NCBI GenBank assembly: GCA_963815495.1
Contig: CAWFGW010000007.1
Coordinates: 129,531 to 193,530, forward strand
DNA length: 64,000 nt
From: an uncultured Cytophagales bacterium
Lineage (GTDB): Bacteria; Bacteroidota; Bacteroidia; Cytophagales; JAAEPT01
Direction of reading: 5' to 3'
Position numbers and translations under genes: made by a program. Shown here piece after piece: positions 3,795-64,000 of the stretch; positions within the stretch are counted from its first letter, which is position 1; the number at the start of each line of letters is the position of its first letter. The notes under the pieces are model-generated. The model had not been told where the DNA came from, ran no database searches, and saw nothing but the letters and a program-made list of their open reading frames with translations.

Positions 3795-4148
3795 TTGAAT
3801 CAAATCAATTACCATAACAAACGATTTAAGTCTGTTTCGAATACGCCTAATGGTGAAGTTTCGGAGCAGACTTTTTTTACTTATTACCAGGATGGAAATA
3901 GACTTTCTGGAGTATATGCTGGAGGTGATATTGTGAACGGTAAGCTGGTAGGTTCGATTCAACCCAATGGCAAATTGCATTTTTCATACACACACCAAAA
4001 CACTGCAGGGGAAACCAAGGAAGGGAAATGCATCTCCACTCCCATTCGATTAGCTGATGGAAGGATGCAACTACATGAAAAATGGCAATGGACGACTGGT
4101 GACTGTTCCCGTGGTGAATCGGTGATTGAGGAGGTTCTTGCCACTTAG
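3795..4148 (+). CDS. small conserved hypothetical protein
   Basis: 117-aa ORF with a TTG start. No motif that I can name. Confidence 0.4.
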   Translation: MNQINYHNKRFKSVSNTPNGEVSEQTFFTYYQDGNRLSGVYAGGDIVNGKLVGSIQPNGKLHFSYTHQNTAGETKEGKCISTPIRLADGRMQLHEKWQWTTGDCSRGESVIEEVLAT

Positions 4149-4262
4149 CAATGTTGATTTTCTATATTTTAAACAATAGCTAGTAAACACATTTTCGGTT
4201 ATTTGTAAAATTTTATTTTATCTTAGTAGAGAAGAAAAATTCCCCAATTAACCATCCGCTAA

Positions 4263-6143: not shown

Positions 6144-6215
6144 ATCCTGGTTAGGCGACTAGAAGACAAATTCTCCTGTAATCAAAAAGCAGGTTTTTAT
6201 ACCACTCAACCTACT

Positions 6216-7505: not shown

Positions 7506-7807
7506 TATTTATTGTTACGCACGCGCTGTTTCGGTTTTTCTTCTTTTAACAAATCTAAGGGACTAATTTGCACTGCGGGTTGTAGTAACTCAGCTAATTG
7601 GTCTATTTGACCCAAGGCACGTAGCACCTGAATAAACGTACTTAAGTTAGCACTTTCCCCATACTCAAGTTTCTGTAAGGTGTAGGCACTTATGCTTGCC
7701 TTTTCTGCCAATTGTTTTTGTGTGTAATTGGCTTGCATGCGATACGCTTTGATGCGCTCCCCCAATTCTTGTAATATCGCTTTATCTGTTTTCCTTTTAA
7801 AACTCAT
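7505..7807 (-). CDS. hipB: XRE-family HTH antitoxin (HipB-like)
   Basis: HTH YTQKQLAEKASISAYTLQKLEYG. Its stop overlaps the hipA ATG by 1 nt. I prefer ATG 7807 over the upstream TTG of the track ORF. Confidence 0.8.
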   Translation of the reverse strand: MSFKRKTDKAILQELGERIKAYRMQANYTQKQLAEKASISAYTLQKLEYGESANLSTFIQVLRALGQIDQLAELLQPAVQISPLDLLKEEKPKQRVRNNK

Positions 7808-7954
7808 AACACCAACTAAACTAGGTTTTAAATCAATAAAAAGCAAATAAAACCAATAATTATTGGTTTTAAATAAACACATACTAACAAGCATGATTGG
7901 TATTAACAGGAGAAATTTTTCTAAAAAGATCCTTAATCGCTCACTTAACTTTAA

Positions 7955-8579
7955 TTAAAATTCAAAATAACTATTGTCTATACTTTTTGCTATCCCTTCT
8001 AATCCAGGATAAATGGTTTTATGATCTACTCCCAACCATTGTAATTCCTTTTTAATTTCAAGTTTTTTATCAGGATTAATTTCTATACTTTCTAAAAAAA
8101 AATCACTTGATGATTTTTTTAAATCTAGTAGCCCGTTTACTTGATTTCCAAAAATTGTAAAGCGAGATTGCTGGCTTCTCATTCGTTCATCAAGTGGAGT
8201 GGGCATAATTGCTAAAGGATAAAATGCCTGTGACCCTGAAATACTTTTAAAATTCATTTCAATATATATTCTACTTATTTCATTTAATTTCCATTTCCCT
8301 AGAACATCTTTAATATCTCCTTTTTCGTAATCACGTAAAGGCCCAAGTATGATGTTTACTTTTTTTAATTCATCATTTATATTCAGGAAGGTTTTTTGGT
8401 TTAATAAATGAGGATTCAACACCAAAAATTTTACAGCTTCACAGTTAGTTTTTTTTCTCTCAACAGCAAAATAAAGTGCTACGAGTGCGTTAGTTGTCCA
8501 ATCCAACTCTTGTCTTCATGCCATAATGAGCCATCATATGATAGAAATTCCAACTATATTCAGTTACTGAACCTATCAT
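7955..8579 (-). pseudogene. FRG-domain gene, 5'-truncated and frameshifted
   Basis: The FRG signature AHYG-x-x-TR-x-LDWT is split between two frames: MAHYGMKTRVG in one and LDWTTNALVALYFA in the ORF frame, with a stop between them near 8505-8518. The ~100 aa normally upstream of this motif are missing. Confidence 0.6.
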
Positions 8580-8722
8580 CTCACACTCTCCTCCACTATC
8601 TTAATCTCCTCCTCCGTTAAGCCATACAAGGCATACACCAACTGGTCTATCTCAGCTTCTAAGGCACTGGTATCTGCTGCTGGGTCTGCTTTTTTGATAT
8701 TTATACTTATATTAAAACTCAT
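8576..8722 (-). pseudogene. relic of the C-terminal tail of an N6-adenine methyltransferase / type IIG R-M (Eco57I/PglX-like) gene
   Basis: 48-codon frame ...KKADPAADTSALEAEIDQLVYALYGLTEEEIKIVEESVR*. The LVYxLYGLTEEEIxIVE ending is the stereotyped tail of that family. Nothing upstream of it survives, because the helicase stop codon is directly adjacent. Confidence 0.45.
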
Positions 8723-10903
8723 TTAAATAACACATTCAAATATTCCAATAATCCTTAAAGTTTTAACTTCATCATCTTTCAACTTTAAAGGCTTATAATC
8801 GGAATTGGTTGATTGAGGTAATAGTGTAATTGTATCATGTTGCCAACCATCCTCAGACACCGTCTTTTTACTATGGTATTCCTTAACAGTGTAACATGAA
8901 CCAAAATCAGAATCTTGTATATCCGTATGTTCTGCTAGTACTATTAGTCCATTTCTCGATCCGCCAGAATATTTTTTGAATAAACAAATAGAACCATCTG
9001 GAATTACTTTATTCATTGATTCACCCACTACTTTACACGCAAAAAAATCTCTAGAAGCTTGATAGCGTTGGGGTAGAGAAATCCATTCATAGTCTTCAAC
9101 ATTTTGTATATCACTGAAACTTCCAGCAGCTGCTTTTAAATCATATAAAGGAATAGAATTTTCAAAAGGGACTATATCATTAGGGTTTAAAGGTGTAATT
9201 ATATCTTTAAAGGATGATTTAACGGGAATGAATCGGGATAAATAATCTCTTAAATTTTTATCACAGACATACACATAAGTTCCCTTTATACCTCTTAACA
9301 AAATCGTTTTGTAGATGTTGATTATATAAGATTTTAATTCTTTAGGATCTTTTATTGATTGCTTACCGTTTTTATCAAAATAATTTTCAGAGATGATTTC
9401 TATTTCATTTGTTTGTTTATTGTAAGTTATTTCATTTCCAAAAATTATCCCTGCATAATTTAAATCATAACCTTGAGTTGTATGTATACATCCGACTTCG
9501 TTAATCGAATTTTCTGAGTTAATCCAATCGGTTGCAGTTCCGTTCCATTTTAATTGAACATTATCTATCTCAATGTCAAAAGCTTGAGAATCTTTATTAG
9601 AAATCCAACTCCAAGAATAACCAGCTATTAATCGAGATAATCCATTTTCATTATTCCTAGATTTGATTTGATCCACAAACTCTTCGATTGAATCAAAAAG
9701 TAAAAACTCATATTTTGGAGCATTGAATGGAGCAATGTCATTCGTTAATGTCCCATTCAACATTTTAGTAACAAAGTCTACATACGCATTCCCACCTTTC
9801 ACTCTAAATTGAGAGTTCAATTTTTCAACTGATGTTGACAAACTTAGTTTTAGTCTATCAAAACTTTGTTTTTCTACATCTGAAGGCTTTATGGACTGGG
9901 AGTCATCATAGAATAAAATAGTCTTTTTGGATTGCATTACAACCCAGTCTAATTCATTAGATGTATTCTTTTCAGTCCCAAGTTTTTCACAAACTTTGTC
10001 AAAAGCACCATAGTATGCGCCAAGATTTATTCTGCGCCTAAGTCTATGAGATTCATCAACTAGAATAATATCGAAGTCTTCTTTAATTACCTCAGCGGGC
10101 CCAATAACCATTCTAGCACTTAAACCTTTAATATTCTTAAAGACTTTTTTAATGGTACTTCTAAACGAGGCCATCGGGATAACCAACGCCATTTTAGGGT
10201 TAGGAAACCTAATTTTAAGTTGTTCTATTAGATAAATGAATTCTTTCTCGTCTTCACCGAATTCTTTAAAGTTGAAATCATCATTATCAGAATTAAGTAT
10301 CTTAAAAAGGAATATAGCTAATATGGTTTTCCCTGTCCCTGCTCCACCTTCAATAAGGATATTTTCTTTTTTATCATTTAGAAGACTTTTTAAAATAATG
10401 AGTAGGCCTTGTCTTTGATCATAAGTTAATGTCTTATATGGAGAATATTTAAACAGATCCGAATTATCAATATGTTGAATCGAATGTTTAGTAATTCCTT
10501 CTGATCTCAGTGAGTTCCAAATTGTATTAAAAATATCCCAGTAAACTTCTTTTTTTTGATAGTAATTGTGATTGGCTAAACCCAAATTCCCATTTAAAAG
10601 TTTATACTGCCCATCTCCGGATATATACTTAATCAAGTTAGATTCTATATCTAAAGTGGCAGATTTATTAAATTTATCACTTGTAATTAAATGTACGGAT
10701 GTAAGCTTTTTTTTTGTGTCATTTTTTAAATGAGCTGCCATGCGAGCATATGCATCAGTTGTTTCTCCAACATAGGCTTCTTTAACTCCCTCATCACTTA
10801 AAATATAAACTAAAGGCCAAAAATCTTTAGCATGATGATTTGTACTAAAATCATCAAAAAGGTTAGAATTAAAATTGTATTGCTTTACTGCAATTTGGCT
10901 CAT
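8723..10903 (-). CDS. three-domain protein: GIY-YIG nuclease + DUF2075-type P-loop (SF1-like) helicase + C-terminal S24 (LexA/UmuD-like) peptidase
   Basis: GIY-YIG at aa 28-100 (LVYIL...AYVGETTDAYARMAAHL). Walker A GGAGTGKT at aa 186-193. Walker B ILVDESHRL at aa 280-288. HTTQGYDLNYAGIIFG motif. S24 domain at aa ~583-726 with AAAG (591-594), GESM (Ser629) and YTVKEY (Lys674). Confidence 0.8.
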   Translation of the reverse strand: MSQIAVKQYNFNSNLFDDFSTNHHAKDFWPLVYILSDEGVKEAYVGETTDAYARMAAHLKNDTKKKLTSVHLITSDKFNKSATLDIESNLIKYISGDGQYKLLNGNLGLANHNYYQKKEVYWDIFNTIWNSLRSEGITKHSIQHIDNSDLFKYSPYKTLTYDQRQGLLIILKSLLNDKKENILIEGGAGTGKTILAIFLFKILNSDNDDFNFKEFGEDEKEFIYLIEQLKIRFPNPKMALVIPMASFRSTIKKVFKNIKGLSARMVIGPAEVIKEDFDIILVDESHRLRRRINLGAYYGAFDKVCEKLGTEKNTSNELDWVVMQSKKTILFYDDSQSIKPSDVEKQSFDRLKLSLSTSVEKLNSQFRVKGGNAYVDFVTKMLNGTLTNDIAPFNAPKYEFLLFDSIEEFVDQIKSRNNENGLSRLIAGYSWSWISNKDSQAFDIEIDNVQLKWNGTATDWINSENSINEVGCIHTTQGYDLNYAGIIFGNEITYNKQTNEIEIISENYFDKNGKQSIKDPKELKSYIINIYKTILLRGIKGTYVYVCDKNLRDYLSRFIPVKSSFKDIITPLNPNDIVPFENSIPLYDLKAAAGSFSDIQNVEDYEWISLPQRYQASRDFFACKVVGESMNKVIPDGSICLFKKYSGGSRNGLIVLAEHTDIQDSDFGSCYTVKEYHSKKTVSEDGWQHDTITLLPQSTNSDYKPLKLKDDEVKTLRIIGIFECVI

Positions 10904-11226
10904 AATTCATTATATTTTTTTGCAGTACCTTTAGACTTTTGAACTGGATATTTTTCAGCATTTTTTTGAACTTTAGCCATTATAATTTCTTTCACATCAA
11001 GATTATACTTATCAGCAAGCAAAAAAGCATATGCAAAAACATCTGCTAGCTCTTCCTTTATTTTATTCAGATTAGCCTCTTCAGGATTTTTCCATAAAAA
11101 TAATTCAAGTAACTCACCTGCTTCTACATTAAGCGCTAACGCTAAATCTTTTGCATTATGAAATTGTTCCCAATCTCTTTCATTCCTGAACTCTATGAGT
11201 TTTTTAATAATTTCTTCCATAGTCAT
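10900..11226 (-). CDS. MazG-like nucleotide pyrophosphohydrolase (dCTPase/DCTPP1-like all-alpha NTP-PPase)
   Basis: RDWEQFH...EAGELLE...EELADVFAY motifs (EExxE/D metal sites). ATGA stop/start overlap with the downstream helicase gene. ATG 11226 chosen over the upstream TTG. Confidence 0.75.
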   Translation of the reverse strand: MTMEEIIKKLIEFRNERDWEQFHNAKDLALALNVEAGELLELFLWKNPEEANLNKIKEELADVFAYAFLLADKYNLDVKEIIMAKVQKNAEKYPVQKSKGTAKKYNEL

Positions 11227-51204: not shown

Positions 51205-52338
51205 TCAATTATAATGTGCTTCATACTGTTTCACAACATTTTCCAAAGAAAGTAGTTTTCTAGTCAAAGGAACAGCTTTTTCTTTAAATTCAGTATAGGG
51301 AAATTGATTATTTACAGCCTCTATAATTATATTTTTAAATTTATTAAAGTCGTTTGCTTTCACCACTATACCACACCGCGCTTCTTCCAGAATTTCTTTT
51401 GCAGAACTCACATCAAAAGAAATGACAGGTACTCCACAAGACAAACTCTCAATCATGCACCTCGCTAACCCCTCTCTATCAGAAACCACTAGCGACCAAT
51501 CAAAAACATTGTACCACTCCTCTACTCGTGCTTGATATGGCAACAATTGAACAAGTGATTCTAATTGATTTGCATGTACCAAGTCTTGACATTTTTTTGC
51601 ATAAGCATTCGTCACAGGTTCAAAGTCACCAATTAAATAAAACATTACTTTTTGTTTGATTTCAAGAGGTAGTGTAGCAACACACTTTTCAATAAATAAA
51701 TCTTGTTGTTTAATGTGTTCAAACCGCCCTACAATACCAAAAATTAATTTATTGGAAGGTAGATTTAGTTTCTCCTTTAATTGATTTTTATCCAAAGGCT
51801 TGAATTTATTAAAATCAACAATACTATAGGTATAGCTAATTTTATCTTTTACTACTGGAAAATGTTTGACCACACGATGCATCATATCTTTAGACAACAC
51901 TATGACATGATCTACAAAAGGAAGTACAATATTCCAGCTTCTTGGGTAAGTGGCTCCTTCAGGTTTAACAGCTCGCTTATTAAAAATCAACTTTTTAAAC
52001 GACAACTTTACTCCTAAAAAACTAGCCATCAATGATTGAATATCATTACAATGTACTGTAGATACATTTATACGTTTCAATAAGAAAAAAACATACAGGT
52101 TTCTAAATACTAAATTATATAACTTGTTTTTTTTCTCTCGTTTGACAACTACTGTTGCTCCGGCATTTTCCCACTTCAAATTGAAGTTAGAATTTGATTG
52201 CGTTAGCACATACACAGTGTGTTTTGAGGCAAGCTCCTGAATCACATTCGTGACACTTTGTACACCACCATTACCTTTAACACCGGTTTGGTAAATAATA
52301 AAAAGTATAGACTTATTTTGTGTAACTTCTAAAGGCAT
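51205..52338 (-). CDS. GT4-family glycosyltransferase
   Basis: REGLARCMIESLSCGVPVISF motif. Confidence 0.75.
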   Translation of the reverse strand: MPLEVTQNKSILFIIYQTGVKGNGGVQSVTNVIQELASKHTVYVLTQSNSNFNLKWENAGATVVVKREKKNKLYNLVFRNLYVFFLLKRINVSTVHCNDIQSLMASFLGVKLSFKKLIFNKRAVKPEGATYPRSWNIVLPFVDHVIVLSKDMMHRVVKHFPVVKDKISYTYSIVDFNKFKPLDKNQLKEKLNLPSNKLIFGIVGRFEHIKQQDLFIEKCVATLPLEIKQKVMFYLIGDFEPVTNAYAKKCQDLVHANQLESLVQLLPYQARVEEWYNVFDWSLVVSDREGLARCMIESLSCGVPVISFDVSSAKEILEEARCGIVVKANDFNKFKNIIIEAVNNQFPYTEFKEKAVPLTRKLLSLENVVKQYEAHYN

Positions 52339-52418
52339 AGATCTCTATTATTTTAAAAGAGAGCTCGAAAATAGCTTATTTCTTTAAAAGAACTTAATTT
52401 TCTGTTTCAATTTAGATT

Positions 52419-54914
52419 TTGGAACTCGAATTTCACCATAGTCAATCACCACAAGAGCGCAAAACACTTTTCGCTGATATAATATTACCTTTACCCCTTC
52501 CTAAGCTTTTTACCTATAGAGTACCCTATGATTTAAATGATGTAGTGGGAAAAGGTTTTCGTGTAGTCGTTCAATTTGGCAACCGTAAGGTATATACAGG
52601 TATAGTCGCTAAACTACACACAACGCCTCCGAGTAATTATGAAGCAAAATATATTTTAGATGTACTCGATGAAAAACCTGCTATCACATCAAAACAACTC
52701 GATTTTTATAACTGGTTAGCAGATTATTACCTCTGTAACATAGGTGATGTCATTCAGGCAGGACTTCCTTCTGGTCTAAAAATAAGCAGTGAGTCCCGAA
52801 TTCAACTTAATCCTCATACCGACATCGCTAGCTTGACTCTGAATGAGTATGAGACCCTAATTATTAATCACCTTCAAGAAAAAGATTTTTTAACCTATGA
52901 CGATGTTTCAAACATTACTCAGAAAAAAGGCATATCCAAGCTGATTCGTTCGCTGCTAGAGAAAGAAGCTATTCTGCTGTATGAAAAAATAAAAGATAAA
53001 TACCAGCCAAAAACGATTGCTAAAATTCGTCTATTGCCCGAGTATCTGTCTGAGAAAGCGATGGAAGAACTGTTTTCAGTACTTGAAAAAAAACAGAAAC
53101 AATTGGAAGTCTTGCTGCAATACTTACAAAAAGTACCTGTTTTAGATAACCCACAAGCCAATGAAGATGGAATCGAGAAGAACGCTTTATTAAACGCATC
53201 CATTTCTCCTTCTTCCTTAAATACACTGATTAAAAATAAGGTGTTTGTACAATTTGAACTGGTGGTCTCACGAATTGAAGAATTCGATCTTCCGGAACAA
53301 GAAATTAAGCTCAGTACTCACCAAGAGGAAAAAGAAAACGAACTATTACAACATTTTGAAACGAAAAACCATGTGTTGTTGCATGGCATCACGGGCAGCG
53401 GAAAAACAGAAATTTACATTAGCTTAATTCTAAAAGCGATTGAAAATGGCACGCATGTGTTATTGCTTTTACCTGAGATAGCCTTAACCACACAAATTGT
53501 GTCTCGGTTGCGCAAGGTGTTTGGCAACGACATGGCGGTTTATCACTCACGCTACAGTGATAATGAACGTGTGGAAGTATATAAAGGCGTATTAGAAAAT
53601 AATTACCCACTGATTGTGGGTGTACGTTCGGCTGTCTTTCTACCTTTCTCCAATTTAGGGATGGTCATCATCGATGAGGAGCACGATAGTTCTTACAAAC
53701 AATATGATCCGGCTCCGCGCTACAACGCACGCGATGCTGCACTGGTACTTGCTAAAATACATGGAGCAAAAGTATTACTCGGCTCTGCCACACCTTCGAC
53801 TGAAAGTTATTTTCATGCCTCTTCCGGTAAATGGGGTTATGTGAAACTGTTTGAACGCTATGGCAACGCTACGCTTCCAGATATTTTACCGGTTGATATT
53901 CGCTATGATCACCAAGGGGGATCTAGCTTTTCTAAAACCCTTTTACATGCAATTGAAGACCGCTTGAGCAAAAAAGAACAAGTGATCTTATTTCAAAACC
54001 GCAGGGGTTACTCGCCTTACATTGAATGTAACGACTGTAATGAAATTGTGATGTGCCCTAACTGTAATGTGAGTTTGACATACCACCAATTTTCTAACGA
54101 CATGCGGTGTCATTACTGTGGACATCATCAGGGAGTACCCACCAACTGTGAGGCGTGCGGCTCCACGAAAATAAACACCAAAGGGTTTGGTACTGAACGT
54201 ATTGAAGAAGGGTTGCAATTGTATTTTCCTGAAGCTGCTATTCAGCGCATGGACTTGGACACTACACGTAAAAAAACAGCTTACCAAACCATCATCGATG
54301 ATTTTGAATCGGGAAGAGTAGACATTTTGGTCGGCACCCAAATGGTCACAAAAGGCCTCGATTTTGACAACGTAAGTTTGGTGGGAGTTTTTGAAATCGA
54401 CCGTATGCTATACTTTCCCGATTATCGTTCGCATGAGCGCACTTACCAGATGCTAACACAAGTAAGCGGCAGAGCAGGACGAAAAGAGAAAAAAGGACTC
54501 GTAATCGTACAAACAAGCAACACCGAGCACGAAACGATTCAAGCGGTACTGAAAGGTGAGAAAGAGAACTTTTATACCAAAGAGATTAACGACCGCGAGG
54601 AGTTTAACTACCCCCCTTTTTCACGGTTAATTCGCATCACTATTCGTCATGAAGACAAGCTCAAAAGTATGGATAGTGCGACTTACCTTGCCCAGCAACT
54701 GCGTAGAAAATTACAACACCGCATACTTGGACCTGAAGAACCTGGGATCAACAGAATTAGAAACTTATTTTTAACAGATATCCTCATCAAACTCGAGCGT
54801 GGATCGCTAGATTTAGCTAAAGCCAAAGCCTTTATATTGGAGGAAGTCAACAAAATTAAAACGCATAAAACCCACCGAAAGTCGATGTATACAATTGATG
54901 TGGATCCGGTTTAA
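52419..54914 (+). CDS. priA: primosomal protein N' (replication restart helicase)
   Basis: Walker A GITGSGKTE, DEEHD, and a Cys-rich zinc module (CNDCN...CPNCN...CHYCG...CEACG). Confidence 0.9.
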   Translation: MELEFHHSQSPQERKTLFADIILPLPLPKLFTYRVPYDLNDVVGKGFRVVVQFGNRKVYTGIVAKLHTTPPSNYEAKYILDVLDEKPAITSKQLDFYNWLADYYLCNIGDVIQAGLPSGLKISSESRIQLNPHTDIASLTLNEYETLIINHLQEKDFLTYDDVSNITQKKGISKLIRSLLEKEAILLYEKIKDKYQPKTIAKIRLLPEYLSEKAMEELFSVLEKKQKQLEVLLQYLQKVPVLDNPQANEDGIEKNALLNASISPSSLNTLIKNKVFVQFELVVSRIEEFDLPEQEIKLSTHQEEKENELLQHFETKNHVLLHGITGSGKTEIYISLILKAIENGTHVLLLLPEIALTTQIVSRLRKVFGNDMAVYHSRYSDNERVEVYKGVLENNYPLIVGVRSAVFLPFSNLGMVIIDEEHDSSYKQYDPAPRYNARDAALVLAKIHGAKVLLGSATPSTESYFHASSGKWGYVKLFERYGNATLPDILPVDIRYDHQGGSSFSKTLLHAIEDRLSKKEQVILFQNRRGYSPYIECNDCNEIVMCPNCNVSLTYHQFSNDMRCHYCGHHQGVPTNCEACGSTKINTKGFGTERIEEGLQLYFPEAAIQRMDLDTTRKKTAYQTIIDDFESGRVDILVGTQMVTKGLDFDNVSLVGVFEIDRMLYFPDYRSHERTYQMLTQVSGRAGRKEKKGLVIVQTSNTEHETIQAVLKGEKENFYTKEINDREEFNYPPFSRLIRITIRHEDKLKSMDSATYLAQQLRRKLQHRILGPEEPGINRIRNLFLTDILIKLERGSLDLAKAKAFILEEVNKIKTHKTHRKSMYTIDVDPV

Positions 54915-54993
54915 TAAAACCCTTTTTTCTTCGCTATTTATTTAAAAGTTTTTAGATTGATTTTAGGTTTTTGAAGATTGAGTAAAAACGCAT

Positions 54994-55092
54994 AAAAAAA
55001 GCCCCGAAGATAGTCGAGGCAAGGCTAAATGTTTACACAACGGAATAATCCTTATTGTGAATTGCTTTCAAACATAACAAAGGTATCAGATA
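54994..55092 (-). ncRNA. tracrRNA (anti-repeat + nexus-like hairpin + intrinsic terminator)
   Basis: +55055-55074 equals nt 2-21 of the reverse-complemented CRISPR repeat. The minus-strand RNA reads ...UGUUUGAAAGCAAUUCACAAU-AAGGAUUAUUCCG-UUGUGUAAACAUUUAGCCUU-GCCUCGACUAUCUUCGGGGC-U7. The 5' end is approximate. Confidence 0.85.
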
Positions 55093-55115
55093 CTTTTAAA
55101 CATAAAAAATAAAAG

Positions 55116-58100
55116 ATGAAAAAGATTTTAGGGCTGGATTTGGGGACAAACTCGATTGGGTGGGCGCTAGTTAACCAAGATTTTGGAAATAAACAAGGAG
55201 AAATAATTGGTTTAGGAAGCCGAATTATTCCCATGAGTCAAGATATTCTCGGAGAATTTGGAAAAGGTAATTCGGTATCTCAAACCGCGGAAAGAACTGG
55301 CTACAGAGGAGTTCGAAGATTAAGAGAAAGGCACTTACTTCGTAGAGAACGATTACACCGAGTATTAAACATTTTATACTTTTTGCCTAAGCATTATGCC
55401 GACCAAATAGATTTTGAAAAAAAATTAGGGAAGTATGTTGAAGGTTCAGAACCAAAATTGGTTTATGACAACGACTTCATCTTCAAAAAGTCTTTTGAGG
55501 AGATGTTAAATGACTTTAAACAAAATCAACCACAGTTACTAATCAATAAAAAAGGAGAACCAGCTTTAGTCCCTTACGATTGGACTATTTATTATTTGCG
55601 TAAAAAAGCACTAACTCAAAAAATAGATAAACAAGAATTAGCATGGATTATCCTGAATTTCAATCAGAAACGTGGTTATTATCAGTTAAGAGGTGAAGAA
55701 GAGGAAGAAAACCCAAATAAGCTTGTTGAGTTCTATTCCTTAAGAATCGTTGATGTTGTACCTGATGAAGAACCCAATAAGAAAGGAGAAACGTGGTATT
55801 CATTACTTTTAGAAAACGGCTGGACTTATAGACGCTCCAGTAAAACTTCTTTGGATGATTGGAAAGACAAAATGAGAGACTTTATTGTTACTACTGACTT
55901 GAATGATGATGGTACAATTAAAACAGATAAAGATGGAGTTGAAAAGCGTAGTTTCAGAGCACCAAAAGAAGACGATTGGGGATTAGTTAAGAAAAAAACA
56001 GAACAGGAAATAGAACAAACAAACAAGACAGTCGGACAATACATCTATGATGCTTTACTTCGTGACCCTAAACAGAAGATAAAAGGGAAACTGGTTCGAA
56101 CTATAGAACGCAGATTTTACAAAGAAGAGTTAAAAGCTATTTTAAAGAAACAAATTGAATTTCAACCTGAATTATTTTCAGATGACTTGTATAATGAATG
56201 TATAAGAGAATTATACAAAAACAACGAAGCACATCAACTTTCTTTGAGCAAAAAAGGCTTCATAAACTTATTTGTTAATGACATCATATTCTATCAACGT
56301 CCATTAAGAAGTCAAAAATCTTCCATCAGTAATTGCTCTTTAGAATTCCGAACATATAAAGTTGATGGCATTAATAAGCAAGAATATTTGAAAGCCATTC
56401 CAAAATCAAATCCTTATTATCAAGAATTTAGAGTGTGGCAATGGTTGTATAATCTGAAAATTTTTAAAAATGAAGATGATACAGATGTAACTGGTTTTTT
56501 TATCAAGAGTGTTGAAGACATAGAAAATATTTTTGAATTTTTAATGAGTCAAAAAGAAGTTGATCATAAAGATGTTTTAAAGTATTTCTTCAATGATTTA
56601 AAAGGCAAAGCTTTAAATGAGGCAATTTCTCTGTATCGTTGGAATTATGTATTCGACTCTGAAAAAGGAGAATCGAAAAAATACCCAATGAATGAAACTG
56701 GACATGAAATTAACCGAAGGTTGAGCAAGGTTAATGATGTTCCATTAGGTTTCTTAAAAATGTTGGACACAAAAGAGATAACAACTAAGAAAACGAAAGA
56801 AAGGAGAATTGTAACACTAGGAACAAGAGAAGAACAGCTTTGGCAAATAATGTATTCAGTTACTGATAAAAAGGAATATGAGCAAGCTTTGAACTCTTTT
56901 GCAGATAAATACAATTTGGATAAAGAATCATTTGTAGAGAATTTTAAAAAATTCCCTCCTTTCAAAAGTGATTATGGTACTTTTTCAGAAAAAGCAATTA
57001 AAAGACTATTGCCTTTATTGAGAATAGGGAAATACTGGAATTGGGATAAAATTGATAAGCATACAAAAAACCGAATAGAAAATATAATCAATGCTGTAGA
57101 TGATGAAATAAGATTAATTGTTCGTGAAAAAGCTGAAAAACACCAATTAACATTGGAGAATGATTTTCAAGGGTTACCTCTTTGGTTGGCTCAATATATT
57201 GTTTACGACCGTCATTCAGAAGCAAGTGTTGCAGGTAAATGGAATTCCGTTTCAGATTTAGAAAACTTCCTTGAAGAATTCAAACAACATTCTTTACGCA
57301 ATCCGATTGTTGAGCAAGTGGTAACAGAAACACTTCGTGTGGTGAAAGACATTTGGCAGCATTACGGTTGCGGAGCTAAAGATTTCTTTGACGAAATTCA
57401 TATTGAGTTGGGTAGAGAAATGAAAAACACCGCAGATGAACGCAAAAGGTTGACAAGCATTGTAACAGAAAATCAAAACACAAATCTTCGTATCAAAGCT
57501 CTTTTAATTGAGATGATGAATGATATTAACGTTGAAAACGTACGTCCTTTTTCTCCATCGCAACAAGAGATATTAAAGATTTACGAAGAAGGTGTTCTTA
57601 ATTCAAGTATTGAAATTGAGGAAGAGATACTAAAAATCAGCAAAAAATCCGAACCCACAAAATCCGAATTACAACGCTATAAGTTATGGATGGAACAAAA
57701 ATACAGGTCACCATACACAGGACAAATTATTCCTTTGAATAAGTTATTTACACCTGAATATGAGATAGAACATATTATTCCACAAAGTAGATTTTTTGAT
57801 GATAGCTTTAGCAATAAAGTGATATGTGAATCAGCAGTTAATAAGCTAAAAGACAATCAAATTGGATTAGAATTTATCAAAAATCATTATGGACAAAAAA
57901 TTTCTCTAGGATTCGGGAAAGAGGTTCAGATTTTTACCGAAGAACAATACAAAGAATTTGTCAAAGAGAACTATTCAAAAAATAGAAGCAAGCGAAACAA
58001 GCTTTTGTTAGAAGACATTCCCGAAAAGATGATTGAAAGACAGCTAAATGATACGAGATACATCAGTAAATTCATCTCTCATGTATTATCGAATATTGTT

Positions 58101-59543
58101 AGAGGTGAAAAAACCGATGAAGGAGTGACGTCTAAAAATATTATTCCAGGAAACGGAAAAATAACAACTGAACTTAAACATGATTGGGGATTGAATGATG
58201 TTTGGAATGATTTGATTTTACCTCGTTTTGAGCGAATGAATGAAATAACAAAATCAAATGATTTCACTACATATAACAAAAAACACCAAAAACATCTTCC
58301 TACAGTTCCTTTCGAGCTAAGCAAAGGATTCCAAAAGAAGCGTATAGACCACAGGCATCATGCTTTAGATGCTTTAGTAATAGCTTGTGCAACTAGAGAT
58401 CATATCAATTTATTGAACAATCAATCTGGTAAATCTGAAATGAAGCGATATGATTTACAGAATAAATTACGCAGAAAAGAACCCTACTTTAATCAAAAAG
58501 AAAACAGACAAAAAGAAGCTTTTAAAGAGTTCTACAAACCATGGAAAACTTTTACCGAAGATACTCGAGAAGTATTGGAAACGACTGTTGTAAGTTTTAA
58601 ACAAAACCTTCGAGTCATTAATAAAGCAACGAATAAGCACGAAAAGTGGATAGAGAAAAACGGAGAAAAGAAAAAAGGATTAGTGGAGCAAATAGGCGTG
58701 AATTGGGCGATTAGAAAACCAATGCACAGAGAAACAGTTTCTGGAAAAATAGACTTACCTAGAATCAAAGTTGCTAAAGGGAAAATTTTAACGGCAACAA
58801 GAAAGAGTATTGACACTTCTTTTAATTTAAAAGTAATAGAATCTATTACAGACACAGGTATTCAAAAAATCCTTCAAAATTATTTATCAAGTAAGAATGG
58901 TGATTCTGAACTGGCTTTTTCTCCGGAAGGAATTGAAGATATGAATAAGAATATTGAAAAGTTTAATGAGGGAAAATTTCATCAGCCAATATATAAAGCA
59001 AGAATTTTTGAAGTCGGAAGTAAATTTTCATTAGGTCATTCTGGAAATAAAAAAGATAAATATGTAGAAGCAGCAAAAGGAACTAATCTATTCTTTGCGG
59101 TTTATCAAGATGAAATTGGAAAGAGAAGTTATGCAACCGTTCCATTAAACGAAGTTATTGAAAGACAAAAGCAAGGTCTGTTTTCAGTTCCCGAGACCAA
59201 TGAAAAAGGTGACAAACTTTTGTTTTCTCTTTCTCCAAATGATTTAGTTTATGTTCCTATGGAAAATGAAGATGTGAAAAGTATAAATTTTAATGATTTG
59301 ACAAAAGAACAAACTGATAGAATCTATAAAATGGAAAAAGCATCAGGCAGCGAATGTTATTTTATTCGATGTAATATTGCCACCTTGATTAAACAATATG
59401 ATGCTAAATCAAAATTAGGAGAACTTTCTAGTCAAAACAAATTAGAAACTACAATGGAAATCAACTCAACCGATAGAATCAAAGAACAATGTTGGAAATT
59501 AGAGACTACAAGATTAGGAGAGATTAAAAATGTAATTAAATAG
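55116..59543 (+). CDS. cas9: type II-C Cas9 (1475 aa)
   Basis: RuvC-I GLDLGTNSIGWA (Asp8, 55137-55139). Arg-rich bridge helix RTGYRGVRRLRERHLLRRERL. HNH YEIEHIIPQS...N (His886, 57771-57773). RuvC-III DHRHHALDALV. Confidence 0.95.
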   Translation: MKKILGLDLGTNSIGWALVNQDFGNKQGEIIGLGSRIIPMSQDILGEFGKGNSVSQTAERTGYRGVRRLRERHLLRRERLHRVLNILYFLPKHYADQIDFEKKLGKYVEGSEPKLVYDNDFIFKKSFEEMLNDFKQNQPQLLINKKGEPALVPYDWTIYYLRKKALTQKIDKQELAWIILNFNQKRGYYQLRGEEEEENPNKLVEFYSLRIVDVVPDEEPNKKGETWYSLLLENGWTYRRSSKTSLDDWKDKMRDFIVTTDLNDDGTIKTDKDGVEKRSFRAPKEDDWGLVKKKTEQEIEQTNKTVGQYIYDALLRDPKQKIKGKLVRTIERRFYKEELKAILKKQIEFQPELFSDDLYNECIRELYKNNEAHQLSLSKKGFINLFVNDIIFYQRPLRSQKSSISNCSLEFRTYKVDGINKQEYLKAIPKSNPYYQEFRVWQWLYNLKIFKNEDDTDVTGFFIKSVEDIENIFEFLMSQKEVDHKDVLKYFFNDLKGKALNEAISLYRWNYVFDSEKGESKKYPMNETGHEINRRLSKVNDVPLGFLKMLDTKEITTKKTKERRIVTLGTREEQLWQIMYSVTDKKEYEQALNSFADKYNLDKESFVENFKKFPPFKSDYGTFSEKAIKRLLPLLRIGKYWNWDKIDKHTKNRIENIINAVDDEIRLIVREKAEKHQLTLENDFQGLPLWLAQYIVYDRHSEASVAGKWNSVSDLENFLEEFKQHSLRNPIVEQVVTETLRVVKDIWQHYGCGAKDFFDEIHIELGREMKNTADERKRLTSIVTENQNTNLRIKALLIEMMNDINVENVRPFSPSQQEILKIYEEGVLNSSIEIEEEILKISKKSEPTKSELQRYKLWMEQKYRSPYTGQIIPLNKLFTPEYEIEHIIPQSRFFDDSFSNKVICESAVNKLKDNQIGLEFIKNHYGQKISLGFGKEVQIFTEEQYKEFVKENYSKNRSKRNKLLLEDIPEKMIERQLNDTRYISKFISHVLSNIVRGEKTDEGVTSKNIIPGNGKITTELKHDWGLNDVWNDLILPRFERMNEITKSNDFTTYNKKHQKHLPTVPFELSKGFQKKRIDHRHHALDALVIACATRDHINLLNNQSGKSEMKRYDLQNKLRRKEPYFNQKENRQKEAFKEFYKPWKTFTEDTREVLETTVVSFKQNLRVINKATNKHEKWIEKNGEKKKGLVEQIGVNWAIRKPMHRETVSGKIDLPRIKVAKGKILTATRKSIDTSFNLKVIESITDTGIQKILQNYLSSKNGDSELAFSPEGIEDMNKNIEKFNEGKFHQPIYKARIFEVGSKFSLGHSGNKKDKYVEAAKGTNLFFAVYQDEIGKRSYATVPLNEVIERQKQGLFSVPETNEKGDKLLFSLSPNDLVYVPMENEDVKSINFNDLTKEQTDRIYKMEKASGSECYFIRCNIATLIKQYDAKSKLGELSSQNKLETTMEINSTDRIKEQCWKLETTRLGEIKNVIK

Positions 59544-59606
59544 GTGTAATCAAAACCAATATTTCCGAAAACTAAATATTCACAAAGATTAAATAACAAA
59601 TAACCT

Positions 59607-59822
59607 ATGCAATCAGAAACTAATTATCACCTCTATAACAACGACAACTCGGTAAACTACTACCGAAGCACAGGACGCTATTTTTTGCATCAATGGTGTA
59701 AGTATATAACACCTGTGGTAGGCATGTGTGGATATTATTTAATGCCCATCCCTCTTATTTTTTTAATTAGAACACCTAAAGAAGAAAAAGTATTCGCATA
59801 TGTTCAAATGAAGAACCCCTAA
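59607..59822 (+). pseudogene. degenerate N-terminal fragment of a RAYT/IS200-like HUH transposase
   Basis: It aligns by eye with the intact RAYT at 63080-63682: YHLYNNDN/FHIYNHAN, RYFLHQ/RYFLRK, YITPV/YIYPL, YYLMPIPLIFLIRTPKE/YCLLPNHFHLMVRIRSE, VFAYV/LFEYL. HUH is lost (PLI instead of HFH). It ends at the same palindrome that lies inside the intact gene. Confidence 0.6.
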
Positions 59823-59825
59823 CCT

Positions 59826-59858
59826 AATCCTCGAGGATTTTAAAACACTCGGAGGATT
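59826..59858. repeat. REP-like palindrome A (imperfect)
   Basis: AATCCTCGAGGATTTTAAAACACTCGGAGGATT. It lies 17 nt upstream of the cas1 ATG. Confidence 0.8.
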
Positions 59859-59875
59859 GTCAACTAGTTAAAGCT

Positions 59876-60769
59876 ATGATAAAACGAACGCTACTCTTTG
59901 GAAACCCTGCTTACCTCAGCACAAAAAACGAACAATTAGTTGTTAAGTATCCTGATGAAGCGCTTGATACTAAAACAGTAGCCATTGAAGACATTGGCGT
60001 ATTGTTATTAGAAGATCCTCAAATTACTATCACCACGGGGTTGATTGACAAACTCACCGCCAACCAAACAGCCATTATCACCTGCGACCGTAACCACATG
60101 CCAACAGGCTTGTTGATGCCGCTTAGCGGACATAGTGAACAACAAGAACGGTTTAGGGCACAACTAAGCGCCAGCGAACCGTTGAGAAAAAACCTATGGC
60201 AACAGACGGTACAGTCAAAAATTAAAAACCAAGCGTTACACCTCAAAGAACGAGGCACGGCTATCGACAATATGCTGCATTGGGTAAAAAGCGTGACCTC
60301 AGGCGATACCCAAAACCATGAAGCACGGGCGGCTGCTTATTACTGGCAACAGTTGTTTGATTTACCGCACTTCAACCGACATGCAGGAGGCGAAGCGCCC
60401 AACAACTTACTGAACTATGGTTACGCTATCTTAAGAGCTGTTTGCTCGCGAGCATTAGTGAGCAGTGGTTTACTTCCCCTACTCGGCATTCATCACAAAA
60501 ATAAATACAACGCCTACTGCCTGGCCGATGACATCATGGAACCTTACCGACCTTATGTTGACCTGGTGGTGTGCCACATCGTGGACAACTTGGGCGATTA
60601 CGAAACATTAACGACTGACTTAAAAAAAGAACTGTTACAAATACCGGTGTTGGATGTGATGATTGACGGCAAAAAAAGTCCGTTGATGGTGGCGATGAGT
60701 CGCACCACCAGTTCGCTGTACGATTGTTTTGCTGGCAATAGTCGGAAAATCAGCTATCCAGAGTTTTAG
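59876..60769 (+). CDS. cas1: Cas1 integrase (type II)
   Basis: 297 aa with NLLNYGYAILR...GIHH...ADDIMEPYRP motifs. Confidence 0.95.
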   Translation: MIKRTLLFGNPAYLSTKNEQLVVKYPDEALDTKTVAIEDIGVLLLEDPQITITTGLIDKLTANQTAIITCDRNHMPTGLLMPLSGHSEQQERFRAQLSASEPLRKNLWQQTVQSKIKNQALHLKERGTAIDNMLHWVKSVTSGDTQNHEARAAAYYWQQLFDLPHFNRHAGGEAPNNLLNYGYAILRAVCSRALVSSGLLPLLGIHHKNKYNAYCLADDIMEPYRPYVDLVVCHIVDNLGDYETLTTDLKKELLQIPVLDVMIDGKKSPLMVAMSRTTSSLYDCFAGNSRKISYPEF

Positions 60770-60774
60770 ACTAC

Positions 60775-60807
60775 AATCCTCGGAGGTTTTGAAAACCTCC
60801 GAGGATT
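60775..60807. repeat. REP-like palindrome B (perfect 16-bp arms)
   Basis: AATCCTCGGAGGTTTT-G-AAAACCTCCGAGGATT, located between the cas1 stop and the cas2 start. Confidence 0.9.
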
Positions 60808-60827
60808 AAAACGATTACAAACACTAA

Positions 60828-61184
<357 letters not shown>

Positions 61185-61255
61185 AAAAGCGGTTTGTTTT
61201 TTAATTCCAATTAATAAAGTAATTCACAGAATACCAACCAATTAGCTTGGGGTAT

Positions 61256-63048
61256 CCTGTGAATTATCACTTAAGATAAGTGTTTGAAAGCAATTCACAA
61301 CCATGGTTAGTGAGAAGGTTCAATTCCTTCTCCTGTGAATTATCACTTAAGATAAGTGTTTGAAAGCAATTCACAACGAACTGACATAAAACGCAAACGT
61401 AAATTATCCTGTGAATTATCACTTAAGATAAGTGTTTGAAAGCAATTCACAACTATTAGTTCCGCATCCTGTTTTGATACCTCCCTGTGAATTATCACTT
61501 AAGATAAGTGTTTGAAAGCAATTCACAACTGATTGCCACATCTTCAACTAGCCCATAGGCCTGTGAATTATCACTTAAGATAAGTGTTTGAAAGCAATTC
61601 ACAACTTGTAAGTTGGTGTTCTTTCGTTTTCTAAACCTGTGAATTATCACTTAAGATAAGTGTTTGAAAGCAATTCACAACATCAGACAAGAGATACCTT
61701 TTTTTATTCTACCTGTGAATTATCACTTAAGATAAGTGTTTGAAAGCAATTCACAACCTTCAAGCCTTTCAATTCTTCTTGATTCCCCCTGTGAATTATC
61801 ACTTAAGATAAGTGTTTGAAAGCAATTCACAACGGAAAAGGTAAATGGTTAAAATTATACAGACCTGTGAATTATCACTTAAGATAAGTGTTTGAAAGCA
61901 ATTCACAACGGCTCACCAAGAGCTTCACCAGCCCATTCGCCTGTGAATTATCACTTAAGATAAGTGTTTGAAAGCAATTCACAACACCTTTAGTTGCACC
62001 CACGTAGTACAAGCCCCTGTGAATTATCACTTAAGATAAGTGTTTGAAAGCAATTCACAACAGTAAAATAGGTGTGCAGATAATCGCTATTCCTGTGAAT
62101 TATCACTTAAGATAAGTGTTTGAAAGCAATTCACAACAGATTTTGCCTTTTCTATTTCTAAAAGCAACCTGTGAATTATCACTTAAGATAAGTTTTTGAA
62201 AGCAATTCACAACTACCTCATAAGCTGGTAAATAAAGCCCTTTCCTGTGAATTATCACTTAAGATAAGTGTTTGAAAGCAATTCACAACGGGTTTTAGAT
62301 AGTTCAAACAATCGTATATCCTGTGAATTATCACTTAAGATAAGTGTTTGAAAGCAATTCACAACTTCAATGGAGTAAAGGGAACATCTCAGGGGCCTGT
62401 GAATTATCACTTAAGATAAGTGTTTGAAAGCAATTCACAACGAGCCTCTTCCAATTCAGAAGATTTGATTTCCTGTGAATTATCACTTAAGATAAGTGTT
62501 TGAAAGCAATTCACAACCTAGTTCGTGAGGTAGTTTAAAACTATTCTCCTGTGAATTATCACTTAAGATAAGTGTTTGAAAGCAATTCACAACTAAGGAG
62601 TTAGGGTTTCATTATGCTTGTTTCCTGTGAATTATCACTTAAGATAAGTGTTTGAAAGCAATTCACAACTACTTCATCTACAAACTTCAACTCCTTAGCC
62701 CTGTGAATTATCACTTAAGATAAGTGTTTGAAAGCAATTCACAACTGGAACAGCAACCGTAACTATTGATGGAAGCCTGTGAATTATCACTTAAGATAAG
62801 TGTTTGAAAGCAATTCACAACGATAGATATCACATTGATAGGGGTAATTTACCTGTGAATTATCACTTAAGATAAGTGTTTGAAAGCAATTCACAACCCG
62901 TGATAATACCATCAATCCTTGAACGGCCTGTGAATTATCACTTAAGATAAGTGTTTGAAAGCAATTCACAACTAGGAGAAGAAACAAAACGATTGTTATT
63001 CTCCTGTGAATTATCACTTAAGATAAGTGTTTGAAAGCAATTCACAAC
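61256..63048 (-). CRISPR. CRISPR array: 24 repeats of 46 bp and 23 spacers (22 x 30 bp, one 29 bp), transcribed on the minus strand
   Basis: + strand repeat CCTGTGAATTATCACTTAAGATAAGTGTTTGAAAGCAATTCACAAC. The crRNA-sense repeat is GTTGTGAATTGCTTTCAAACACTTATCTTAAGTGATAATTCACAGG. Period 76 bp. Orientation is fixed by complementarity to the terminator-bearing tracrRNA. Confidence 0.97.
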
Positions 63049-63071
63049 TTTTAACCCTCGGAGGGTTAAAA
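63049..63071. repeat. REP-like palindrome C
   Basis: TTTTAACCCTC-G-GAGGGTTAAAA. It starts at the base immediately after the last CRISPR repeat. Confidence 0.85.
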
Positions 63072-63079
63072 ATTAAGGT

Positions 63080-63682
63080 TTAAAACTCAAATAAACCCTC
63101 ATTAATTGTGATATTGTTATGAAAGTCCAACAATGCTTGTTTGTTACCAAACCACTCCTGGAGGTACATTCGATTGATCTTCGTGGGTTTTTCGAGGCAA
63201 TAAGCATGGATAGAAGAATGTTTCCAGTCGAGTAAGTTGCAACAAAACCCGTGTTTTACTGGGTTTAAGTGTATGTAAGCTATAAGTCTGGTAAAGTAAG
63301 TCTCATCCTGTACCGGTTTGCGTTTAAACCGATGCATAAAAAGACTGCCTTTTCTATCATACATCTCATTATAGGCTTTTGAGTAAGCATTAAAAAAGTT
63401 ACTAAATTGTTTTGATACTAGACCTCCGAGGTTTTCAAAACCTCGGAGGTCTTTACCTTTTAAATATTCAAACAACACGTCCTCACTCCTTATCCTCACC
63501 ATTAGATGAAAATGATTAGGCAACAAACAATACGCATAAGTATCGGCTAGAGGATAGATGTAGTCAGCATATTTACGAAGAAAATAACGATAGTTTTCAT
63601 CGTTTCTAAATAGATTTTCGCTACCATTGGCATGATTGTAAATGTGGAAAACAGTGTCTGGTAAAAGTGGTTCTAAATACAT
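63080..63682 (-). CDS. REP-associated tyrosine transposase (RAYT) / IS200-like Y1 HUH transposase
   Basis: HUH motif PNHFHLMV and catalytic-Tyr motif AYIHLNPVKHG, in a 200-aa protein. Confidence 0.8.
   Translation of the reverse strand: MYLEPLLPDTVFHIYNHANGSENLFRNDENYRYFLRKYADYIYPLADTYAYCLLPNHFHLMVRIRSEDVLFEYLKGKDLRGFENLGGLVSKQFSNFFNAYSKAYNEMYDRKGSLFMHRFKRKPVQDETYFTRLIAYIHLNPVKHGFCCNLLDWKHSSIHAYCLEKPTKINRMYLQEWFGNKQALLDFHNNITINEGLFEF
63420..63452. repeat. REP-like palindrome D, in frame inside the RAYT ORF
   Basis: AGACCTCCGAGGTTTT-C-AAAACCTCGGAGGTCT, which encodes KDLRGFENLGGL. Confidence 0.9.
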
Positions 63683-63697
63683 AGCTGGTTTATTTTA

Positions 63698-63714
63698 TTA
63701 ACCCTCAGAGGGTG
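63698..63714. repeat. REP-like palindrome E
   Basis: TTAACCCTC-A-GAGGGTG. It lies 16 bp upstream of the RAYT ATG. Confidence 0.7.
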
Positions 63715-63746
63715 TGAATAGAAAACTAAAAATCTTATTATTATTC

Positions 63747-64000
63747 TCAAATGCTAAGTGGTCTTTTACTGGTCAAAAAGGTTTTAAATGCTTCGCTTTT
63801 TAATACGGTTATTTGATCGATGAGCCCTAACACAAACCGCCCCACTCCTGCAAACTGACTTACCTTGCAACGTAATACATACATTTTTTTATCTTCATCA
63901 ACCAACGACAGGTAATTGATGGCCAACGGAAACTCTTTTATCAACAAAAGATACGCTTGAAAAGAGAGTTCTAATTCAATCGGTAAATCAGGTGTTCCAG
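63747..64000 (-). CDS. C-terminal end of a WYL/YafY-like transcriptional regulator (5' part outside window)
   Basis: The frame is open to the window edge (...GTPDLPIELELSFQAYLLLIKEFPLAINYLS...FAGVGRFVLGLIDQITVLKSEAFKTFL). It resembles the WCX C-terminal extension of WYL regulators. The assignment is tentative. Confidence 0.35.
   Translation of the reverse strand, partial: GTPDLPIELELSFQAYLLLIKEFPLAINYLSLVDEDKKMYVLRCKVSQFAGVGRFVLGLIDQITVLKSEAFKTFLTSKRPLSI

Follow-up and report, generated by a model that had tools for sequence, protein, structure and literature searches.

Why is cas9 separated from cas1 by 332 nt in the type II-C CRISPR-Cas locus that makes up the end of the 64-kb window, i.e. 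the whole stretch of 64,000 nucleotides of DNA that was analysed, and what does this gap contain? A preliminary description had seen in it one half of a decayed RAYT transposase gene that ends at an internal palindrome. We conclude that the gap very probably carries the relic of a REP-associated tyrosine transposase gene (RAYT; together with its hairpins, a REPtron) from the II-C cassette, which was shortened by a hairpin-to-hairpin deletion and decayed afterwards. The argument refers to the following features; the strand is given where one was assigned.

52419 to 54914: priA.
54923 to 54935: left junction of the cassette, formed by a left-arm copy of the REP unit (TTTTTTCTTCGCT), placed by the alignment of a 13-mer of locus L170.
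54936 to 63048: II-C cassette of 8,113 bp with tracrRNA, cas9, dead RAYT, cas1, cas2 and array, delimited by blastn against L170.
54990 to 55078, minus strand: candidate tracrRNA with approximate ends (anti-repeat at 55055-55074; terminator-like GC hairpin and T-run near 54990-55015).
55116 to 59543, plus strand: cas9, 1475 aa (TIGR01865, E 1.5e-123).
59544 to 59606, plus strand: former 5' leader of the dead RAYT (sequence reading and alignment).
59607 to 59822, plus strand: dead RAYT, 71 N-terminal codons (BLASTP, tblastn).
59826 to 59858: decayed hairpin made of two REP units (dimer), the surviving joint of the deletion (palindrome comparison, folding, blastn).
59859 to 59875, plus strand: 17-nt spacer from the hairpin to the cas1 ATG (18 nt in L001, 16 nt in L006).
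59876 to 60769, plus strand: cas1 (PF01867, E 3e-28; 89% identity to the Cas1 of L001).
60775 to 60807: perfect 33-nt hairpin in the cas1-cas2 gap (-16.4 kcal/mol, z -8.1).
60831 to 61184, plus strand: cas2 (PF09827; 94% identity to the Cas2 of L001).
61256 to 63048: CRISPR array with 24 repeats of about 47 nt each (RF01363).
63046 to 63074: REP unit 3' of the resident RAYT and right junction of the cassette; the annotated arm overlaps the terminal CRISPR repeat by 3 nt.
63080 to 63682, minus strand: intact resident RAYT, 200 aa (NF047646, E 4.6e-16; HUH and catalytic Tyr present).
63420 to 63452: in-frame internal hairpin of the intact RAYT, encoding DLRGFENLGGL.
63699 to 63715: REP unit 5' of the resident RAYT, single (a full dimer in L081/L082).

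According to its Cas1 and Cas2, the closest relative of this locus is that of a Cytophagales metagenome-assembled genome, L001. Looking up both window proteins by exact sequence to find sister strains returned no record. The candidate tracrRNA contains a 20-nt anti-repeat (55055-55074) that matches the repeat perfectly and is followed on the minus strand by the GC hairpin and the T-run, and its region is 86% identical in nucleotides to L001 5065-5244. At the other end of the cas genes, the start of the first CRISPR repeat pairs with the sequence immediately 5' of it in a 16-nt inverted repeat (TAATTCACAGAATACC / GGTATCCTGTGAATTA, 61220-61266), and the cas2-array spacer holding this structure is 77% conserved relative to L001.

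The open reading frame in the gap, orf71 (71 aa), aligns in a single BLASTP comparison with the intact RAYT at 63080-63682 (23 identities over 70 positions, 33%, E 9e-11), and the intact RAYT matches only two places when searched against the whole window by tblastn, the second of them being 59604-59864. This second match crosses two stop codons and reaches into the palindrome 59826-59858. The preliminary description was hence right in assigning the frame to the N-terminus of a RAYT and in following the homology through stop codons into the palindrome. It had also noted the loss of the HUH histidines, which is confirmed by the change from PNHFHL in the intact RAYT to PIPLIF in orf71. Approximately 10 of 27 family-conserved positions are altered in orf71, and the part with the catalytic tyrosine is deleted. 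The leader at 59544-59606 resembles that of the intact RAYT in its last approximately 30 nt but lacks the hairpin unit of the latter. The frame is still open and starts with ATG, so that a peptide may be expressed from it. However, Pfam and NCBIfam gave no match for orf71, and a search among 5.8 billion proteins found no relative except orf71 itself; a conserved small gene was therefore rejected as an explanation, given that the sequence is unique in the protein database. We are highly confident that 59607-59858 is a genuine pseudogene whose truncation is well explained. In itself, the dead gene is an ordinary pseudogene, and its worth lies in pointing to the association of RAYTs with cas genes.

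To which enzyme family did the dead gene belong? The intact RAYT carries the Tyr motif AYIHLNP approximately 80 aa after HUH. Pfam did not match this protein, which is recognised by NCBIfam (NF047646 with 59 bits, under the curated cutoff of 80), by a PDB profile (4ER8, E 5.5e-8) and by fold search only. The AlphaFold2 model (pLDDT 92) has 4ER8 as its top Foldseek match (E 1.6e-8, TM 0.60/0.71), i.e. the predicted fold is that of E. coli TnpAREP. Residues 78-88, which are encoded by the internal hairpin, form in the model the loop and the helix start after the HUH strand. Such internal palindromes recur across the family: palindromes of at least 13 bp were found in 50 of 100 family genes versus 2 of 500 codon-shuffled controls, nearly all of them 12-49 codons after HUH and with 33 different arm sequences. 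The hairpin sequence varies between loci and stays matched within a locus; several loci have an internal hairpin that agrees with palindromes flanking its own RAYT or located in adjacent cas intergenic gaps. The resident RAYT of the window is likewise flanked by cognate palindromes (63046-63074 and 63699-63715). In-frame REP insertions between HuH and Y have already been described for tnpAREP subclass 2.4 (Quentin 2018, PMC6006769), and the in-frame internal hairpin is thus a known and published family trait. The assignment to a subclass is less uniform: NHFH in the intact RAYT fits the motif NH[IFV]H of subclass 2.4, whereas the Tyr motif YIHLNP/YIHxNP fits the motifs of subclasses 2.1 or 2.6 as well as or better than the YIxNNP of subclass 2.4 (Quentin 2018). 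As a side observation, repeats of hairpin-derived peptides lengthen the linker after HUH in the cas9-cas1 RAYTs of L055 (9224-9970), L038 (9247-9948) and L058 (9308-9988), for example two copies of EGCEPLVDL in L055 and GVTQ repeats in L038. These linkers appear to have accumulated several hairpin copies in frame.

All hairpin copies of the window are confined to 59.8-63.7 kb and none was found in the remaining 59 kb; the sequence CCTCSGAGG occurs five times in the window versus 0.09 times expected, always at 60.7-63.5 kb. In the loci retrieved with 10 kb on either side, the hairpin copies also lie within approximately 5 kb of the RAYT gene. The 33-nt hairpin represents a dimer of a palindromic unit of approximately 15 nt, and GTAG or GTGG is absent from the 5' foot of the hairpins read. 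The palindrome in the cas9-cas1 gap (AATCCTCGAGGATTTTAAAACACTCGGAGGATT, 59826-59858) corresponds in degraded form to the perfect 33-nt palindromes at 60775-60807 (29 of 34 columns matched) and 63420-63452 (26 of 34). Its folding energy is -6.4 kcal/mol, compared to -16.4 and -17.4 kcal/mol for the two perfect copies, and 7 of 200 shuffled sequences fold as well. The hairpin between cas1 and cas2 has its counterpart in L001 at 10906-10944, and intact hairpins in this gap occur in L005, L100, L102 and L124 as well. In L001, a further copy (4927-4962) is found on the left border of the II-C locus, between the tracrRNA and the adjoining gene, so that hairpins of L001 occur both at this border and within the locus.

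How the gene was lost becomes visible in the comparison with L001. There, cas9 ends at 9295 and is followed by a full-length RAYT (9341-9931) on the same strand as cas9 and cas1, with HUH and Tyr intact, an internal hairpin at 9525-9558 and a second hairpin copy at 9950-9982, before cas1 starts at 10001. This RAYT is the orthologue of orf71, with which it shares 53% identity (E 1e-17) and forms a sister pair in the neighbour-joining tree. In the blastn alignment, window 59676-59773 corresponds to L001 9419-9516 (72% identity) and ends 9 nt before the internal hairpin, and the similarity is resumed in a single 3.3-kb alignment of window 59822-63048 with L001 9946-13172 (75%), which begins 4 nt before the 3' hairpin and spans cas1, cas2 and the array. 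The window lacks the approximately 390 bp between the two hairpin positions of L001 and has kept one hairpin at the joint. L001 belongs to another species, and the linker in front of its hairpin has approximately ten codons fewer than that of the window; hence, the endpoints can be assigned to the hairpins, but not with single-nucleotide precision. Decay of the surviving hairpin has gone too far to reveal a chimeric origin; the copy closest to it is the one between cas1 and cas2 mentioned above. Compared to L001, the relic retained 67% nucleotide and 53% amino acid identity versus 78% and 89% for cas1, which indicates drift after the inactivation. The view of the preliminary description that the spacer is a RAYT half-gene ending at the internal hairpin of the family, 17 nt before the cas1 ATG, can hence be retained, with a gap length of 332 nt.

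These findings can be arranged in the following scenario. The ancestral RAYT, borne by the cassette between cas9 and cas1, would have resembled the intact gene of L001, with one in-frame hairpin copy in the loop that follows the HUH strand and another one immediately past the stop codon, 16-18 nt before cas1. The latter copy is deduced from L001, because a hairpin between RAYT and cas1 is present in only 3 of 16 loci. A deletion between both hairpins would have removed the 3' approximately 390 bp including the catalytic tyrosine, may have proceeded via recombination or slippage between the repeats or via RAYT cleavage and rejoining at the hairpins, and would have left a single hairpin 17 nt before cas1. 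In the remaining 5' part, drift then led to the loss of HUH, two in-frame indels, the stop before the hairpin and the degradation of the hairpin. The loss may have been tolerated owing to the intact resident RAYT 3.2 kb away, which possibly made the imported RAYT redundant. The comparisons above show the homology, the orthology to L001, the location of both endpoints at hairpin positions and the decay, whereas the mechanism of the deletion and its tolerance are inferred.

Is the intact gene in L001 an exception? Our Cas1 search, which considered one genome per species, retrieved 80 loci, of which 70 could be scored at the cas9-cas1 junction. In 16 of these 70 Bacteroidota II-C loci, i.e. L001 and 15 others, a full-length RAYT fills the gap between cas9 and cas1, in all 16 cases on the cas strand and with HUH (xHxH) and Tyr intact. 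An internal hairpin exists in 14 of the 16 genes, and a hairpin just before cas1 in L001, L006 and L079, the last of which has palindrome copies at 9237, 9507 and 9928. The gap does not exceed 152 nt in 45 other loci, often with a 4-nt overlap of the genes, and nine large gaps consist of unrelated sequence. Other truncated relics or hairpins were not detected in the remaining cas9-cas1 gaps, so that the loss of RAYT by truncation was seen once among the loci examined. The preliminary description had set a conserved independent small gene in other cas9 loci against its own interpretation; a conserved gene does exist at this position there, but as the full-length RAYT, whereas the 71-aa frame is not conserved. 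In L036 (6841-7471), L053 (5975-6605) and L069 (1246-1876), the RAYT is separated from cas9 and cas1 by 0-5 nt or overlaps by 4 nt, and carries the internal hairpin only, without flanking hairpins. This tight packing looks like a long-standing operon integration.

The second RAYT of the window has another history. Via cluster mates of the intact RAYT we found two close relatives, L170 and L171. In L170, the RAYT lies directly beside priA and cas genes are absent within 10 kb. The blastn alignment pairs window 51799-54935 with L170 13770-10637 and window 63049-63998 with L170 10649-9693, and these flanks are 86-87% identical in nucleotides. Because the RAYT of L170 adjoins priA without cas genes, window 54936-63048 represents an 8,113-bp insertion relative to L170. 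The II-C locus is thus an 8.1-kb presence/absence polymorphism between the window and L170 (10637-10649). The L170 13-mer TTTTAACTTCGCT, a piece of the 3' hairpin unit of the RAYT, aligns at both sides of the cassette, and the resident hairpin-unit sequence begins at 63049, right after the terminal CRISPR repeat. In L171, the II-C cassette is found on the other (5') side of the RAYT, ends 5 nt from the 5' hairpin unit and contains the final 33 nt of priA once more. The two copies of these 33 nt, which differ by 2 mismatches, bracket the RAYT, the whole arrangement spanning L171 753-1760. In L171, the REPtron or the cassette is relocated relative to the arrangement of the window. L081 and L082, whose PriA is 87% identical, possess an orthologous RAYT (74% amino acid identity) in a type V-A system, with cas12a on one side of it and cas4-cas1-cas2 on the other. 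This V-A locus (4074-10476; cas12a-RAYT-cas4-cas1-cas2 with at least one Cas12a-type repeat) also sits at the priA site, which is hence occupied by different CRISPR types, V-A in L081/L082 and II-C in the window. In the window, a remnant of a Cas12a-type repeat was not found, and a Cas12a C-terminus at the window end (63747-64000), as in L081, was ruled out; the L170 gene at the position matching the window end, upstream of the RAYT, has a weak HTH_11 match. Altogether, the intact RAYT of the window is the syntenic orthologue of the priA-side RAYT in L170, L171 and L081 (76-89% nucleotide identity).

Hairpin units are therewith the site of three independent breakpoints, namely the gene-killing deletion from the internal hairpin to the copy before cas1, the junction of the 8.1-kb cassette, and the relocated cassette of L171. 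These three breakpoints support the hairpin as recombination point, one of the roles that the preliminary description had considered for it.

Other explanations for the content of the gap have to be weighed against this evidence. The preliminary description regarded the half-gene as a decayed paralogue of the adjacent RAYT, i.e. orf71 could be a recent duplicate of the gene at 63080-63682 that decayed after the duplication. The proximity of both RAYTs within the same 4-kb stretch and the homologous position of the hairpin in both are consistent with such a duplication. However, orf71 is more similar to the cas9-cas1 RAYT of L001 than to its neighbour (53% versus 33% identity), the relic is part of the 8.1-kb cassette absent from L170, and the neighbour is a resident, syntenic gene that adjoins priA even in relatives without CRISPR there. 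We consider a duplication extremely unlikely, and the neighbour as the source of orf71 has to be given up. It is also very unlikely that the half-gene, bounded by its hairpin, was mobilised as a unit into the cas9-cas1 gap. Y1 HUH enzymes act at hairpins, and hairpin units are found at other rearrangement junctions of this locus, but 16 related loci have the full-length gene at exactly this site, a hairpin is absent 5' of the fragment, the alignment with L001 continues collinearly on either side, and a second copy of the fragment was found neither in the window nor in the database of 5.8 billion proteins. The same facts disfavour the earlier suggestion of a mobile hairpin unit that carried flanking sequence with it.

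A present function of the region, either as a small protein or via a hairpin that tunes cas1 expression, is suggested by the open frame with its ATG, by the intact hairpins in the cas1-cas2 gap of the six loci named above, and by reports that intercistronic REP hairpins modulate mRNA stability and expression (Higgins 1982, as cited in PMC5581495). We regard it as quite unlikely, given that orf71 is unique and has lost family-invariant residues, and that the hairpin in question is degraded to a weak fold, which 7 of 200 shuffled sequences equal. Finally, some type II-A subclusters have their tracrRNA in the interval from cas9 to cas1 (PMC3737331), and the gap could encode a tracrRNA or another CRISPR RNA. 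However, the sole anti-repeat outside the array lies upstream of cas9 (55055-55074) and Rfam finds nothing in the cas9-cas1 gap, which makes the probability of this explanation practically negligible. Hence, the relic of a cassette-borne RAYT, truncated between two hairpins, remains the preferred interpretation.

Another kind of exchange was observed in the same locus. Despite 89% identity of Cas1, the Cas9 proteins of the window and L001 share only 25% identity. The tracrRNA stretch and the first approximately 59 nt of cas9 are 86% identical to L001, whereas the remaining Cas9 shows the 25%, and this switch of identity places a recombination breakpoint near 55175, inside cas9. Among the Bacteroidota II-C loci L001-L080, cas9 is often swapped (approximately 25-30% identity) before a near-identical cas1, with or without a RAYT; the Cas1/Cas9 identities are for example 99.4%/25% in L023/L024 and 91%/26% in L018/L019. 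The combination of high Cas1 and low Cas9 identity occurs also in other RAYT-bearing pairs. RAYTs or hairpins as drivers of the cas9 exchange were rejected, since it is equally common in pairs without RAYT such as L023/L024.

How does this locus compare to known systems? Like Tn7-like CAST elements and casposons, it shows a transposase-family gene physically linked to cas genes. However, those elements use other enzyme families (DDE/TnsB and Cas1, respectively) and the cas genes serve the transposon there, whereas no transposon structure encloses the locus here and any role of the RAYT is putative. In enterobacteria, REP/BIME copies are said to act as endpoints of deletions and rearrangements, reportedly observed by Shyamala et al. 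in 1990. The likeness consists in short palindromic repeats as endpoints of deletions or duplications; different is that one endpoint lies here inside the RAYT coding sequence and that the event kills the RAYT. With the REPtron of E. coli (TnpAREP, 4ER8; Nunvar 2010; Ton-Hoang 2012; Messing 2012, PMC3479197) our RAYTs share the Y1 HUH fold with HUH and Tyr, and the flanking by locus-specific palindrome copies. In contrast to it, the hairpins lack the GTAG foot and are confined to the CRISPR locus within the 64-kb window, the RAYT is embedded in cas operons in the same orientation, and its NCBIfam score of 59 stays below the cutoff of 80. The similarity to tnpAREP subclass 2.4 (Quentin 2018, PMC6006769) includes the in-frame hairpin between beta3 (HUH) and alphaC, a linker of variable length with repeated hairpin-derived peptides, and the occurrence in Bacteroidetes. 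However, 'double foot' REPs with GT[AG]G and the motif YIxNNP are characteristic there, compared to YIHLNP/YIHxNP and hairpins without GTAG here; CRISPR is not mentioned by Quentin 2018 (PMC6006769). A Y1 HUH gene beside an RNA-guided nuclease, combined with a hairpin-recognising chemistry, is also known from IS200/IS605 elements with TnpA and IscB/TnpB, the latter representing the transposon ancestors of Cas9 and Cas12 (PMC4810608, PMC8612924, PMC10691335). The gene discussed here is however of the RAYT type (approximately 200 aa, nearest to 4ER8), as opposed to TnpA(IS200); it is a single-copy gene that follows cas9 and heads cas1-cas2, and transposon ends around cas9 are absent.

Beyond this locus, we analysed 80 metagenome loci that were chosen by RAYT similarity alone. 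In at least 22 of the 80, cas genes are found alongside the RAYT. By far the commonest downstream neighbour is Cas1 (11 of 66, the next family reaching 3), and Cas9 and Cas6 recur upstream. Six close homologues were checked singly: three are linked to cas genes (in a V-A locus, in a type I locus and directly upstream of cas9) and three are not. Approximately one quarter of this RAYT clade is therefore found in or beside cas operons, which comprise types I, II-C and V-A, and this association seems to be unreported. In the literature searched, outside of which most subscription journals lay, we found no report on a link of RAYT/tnpAREP to cas operons, and a CRISPR-like role for RAYTs was raised as speculation only (Bertels 2017, PMC5581495). 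In the II-C pairs, the divergence of the RAYT goes with that of cas1 rather than with that of cas9: the distances of Cas1 and RAYT correlate (Mantel test, 0 of 2000 permutations), and the identities between L035 and L036 amount to 97% for Cas1 and 89% for RAYT versus 26% for Cas9. Since most members of the RAYT family occur in non-CRISPR contexts and the position inside cas loci varies, we do not call the RAYT a cas gene. Regarding this variable position, the RAYT is located between cas1 and cas2 in L118 (5988-8079), directly upstream of cas9 on a 4.3-Mb chromosome in L169 (6001-12633), and on the opposite strand facing cas2-cas1 in L089 (6965-9218).

The part that deserves the attention of specialists is the REPtrons embedded in cas operons and the hairpin units at cassette junctions. 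One may ask whether the Bacteroidota RAYT clade with its hairpins is a working partner of CRISPR-Cas and not a passenger. We regard such a partnership as rather doubtful and the function as putative. If it exists, the Y1 HUH nuclease would head the adaptation module, preceding cas1 in II-C and cas4 in types I and V-A, and its hairpins could serve as sites for the integration, movement and trimming of cas cassettes; alternatively, the nuclease might act in adaptation or set the expression of the cas operon. The window could then represent one stage of a life cycle, in which a cassette landed at the hairpin of the resident RAYT and its own redundant RAYT was deleted thereafter.

The cas-linked RAYTs are co-oriented with the cas genes, often placed tightly against cas1 or cas4, and inherited together with cas1. 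Moreover, the hairpin breakpoints bear on the movement of CRISPR-Cas cassettes between and within genomes. The role of RAYTs and their hairpins for the host is an old question, for which the cas-linked RAYTs provide concrete loci for genetic tests.
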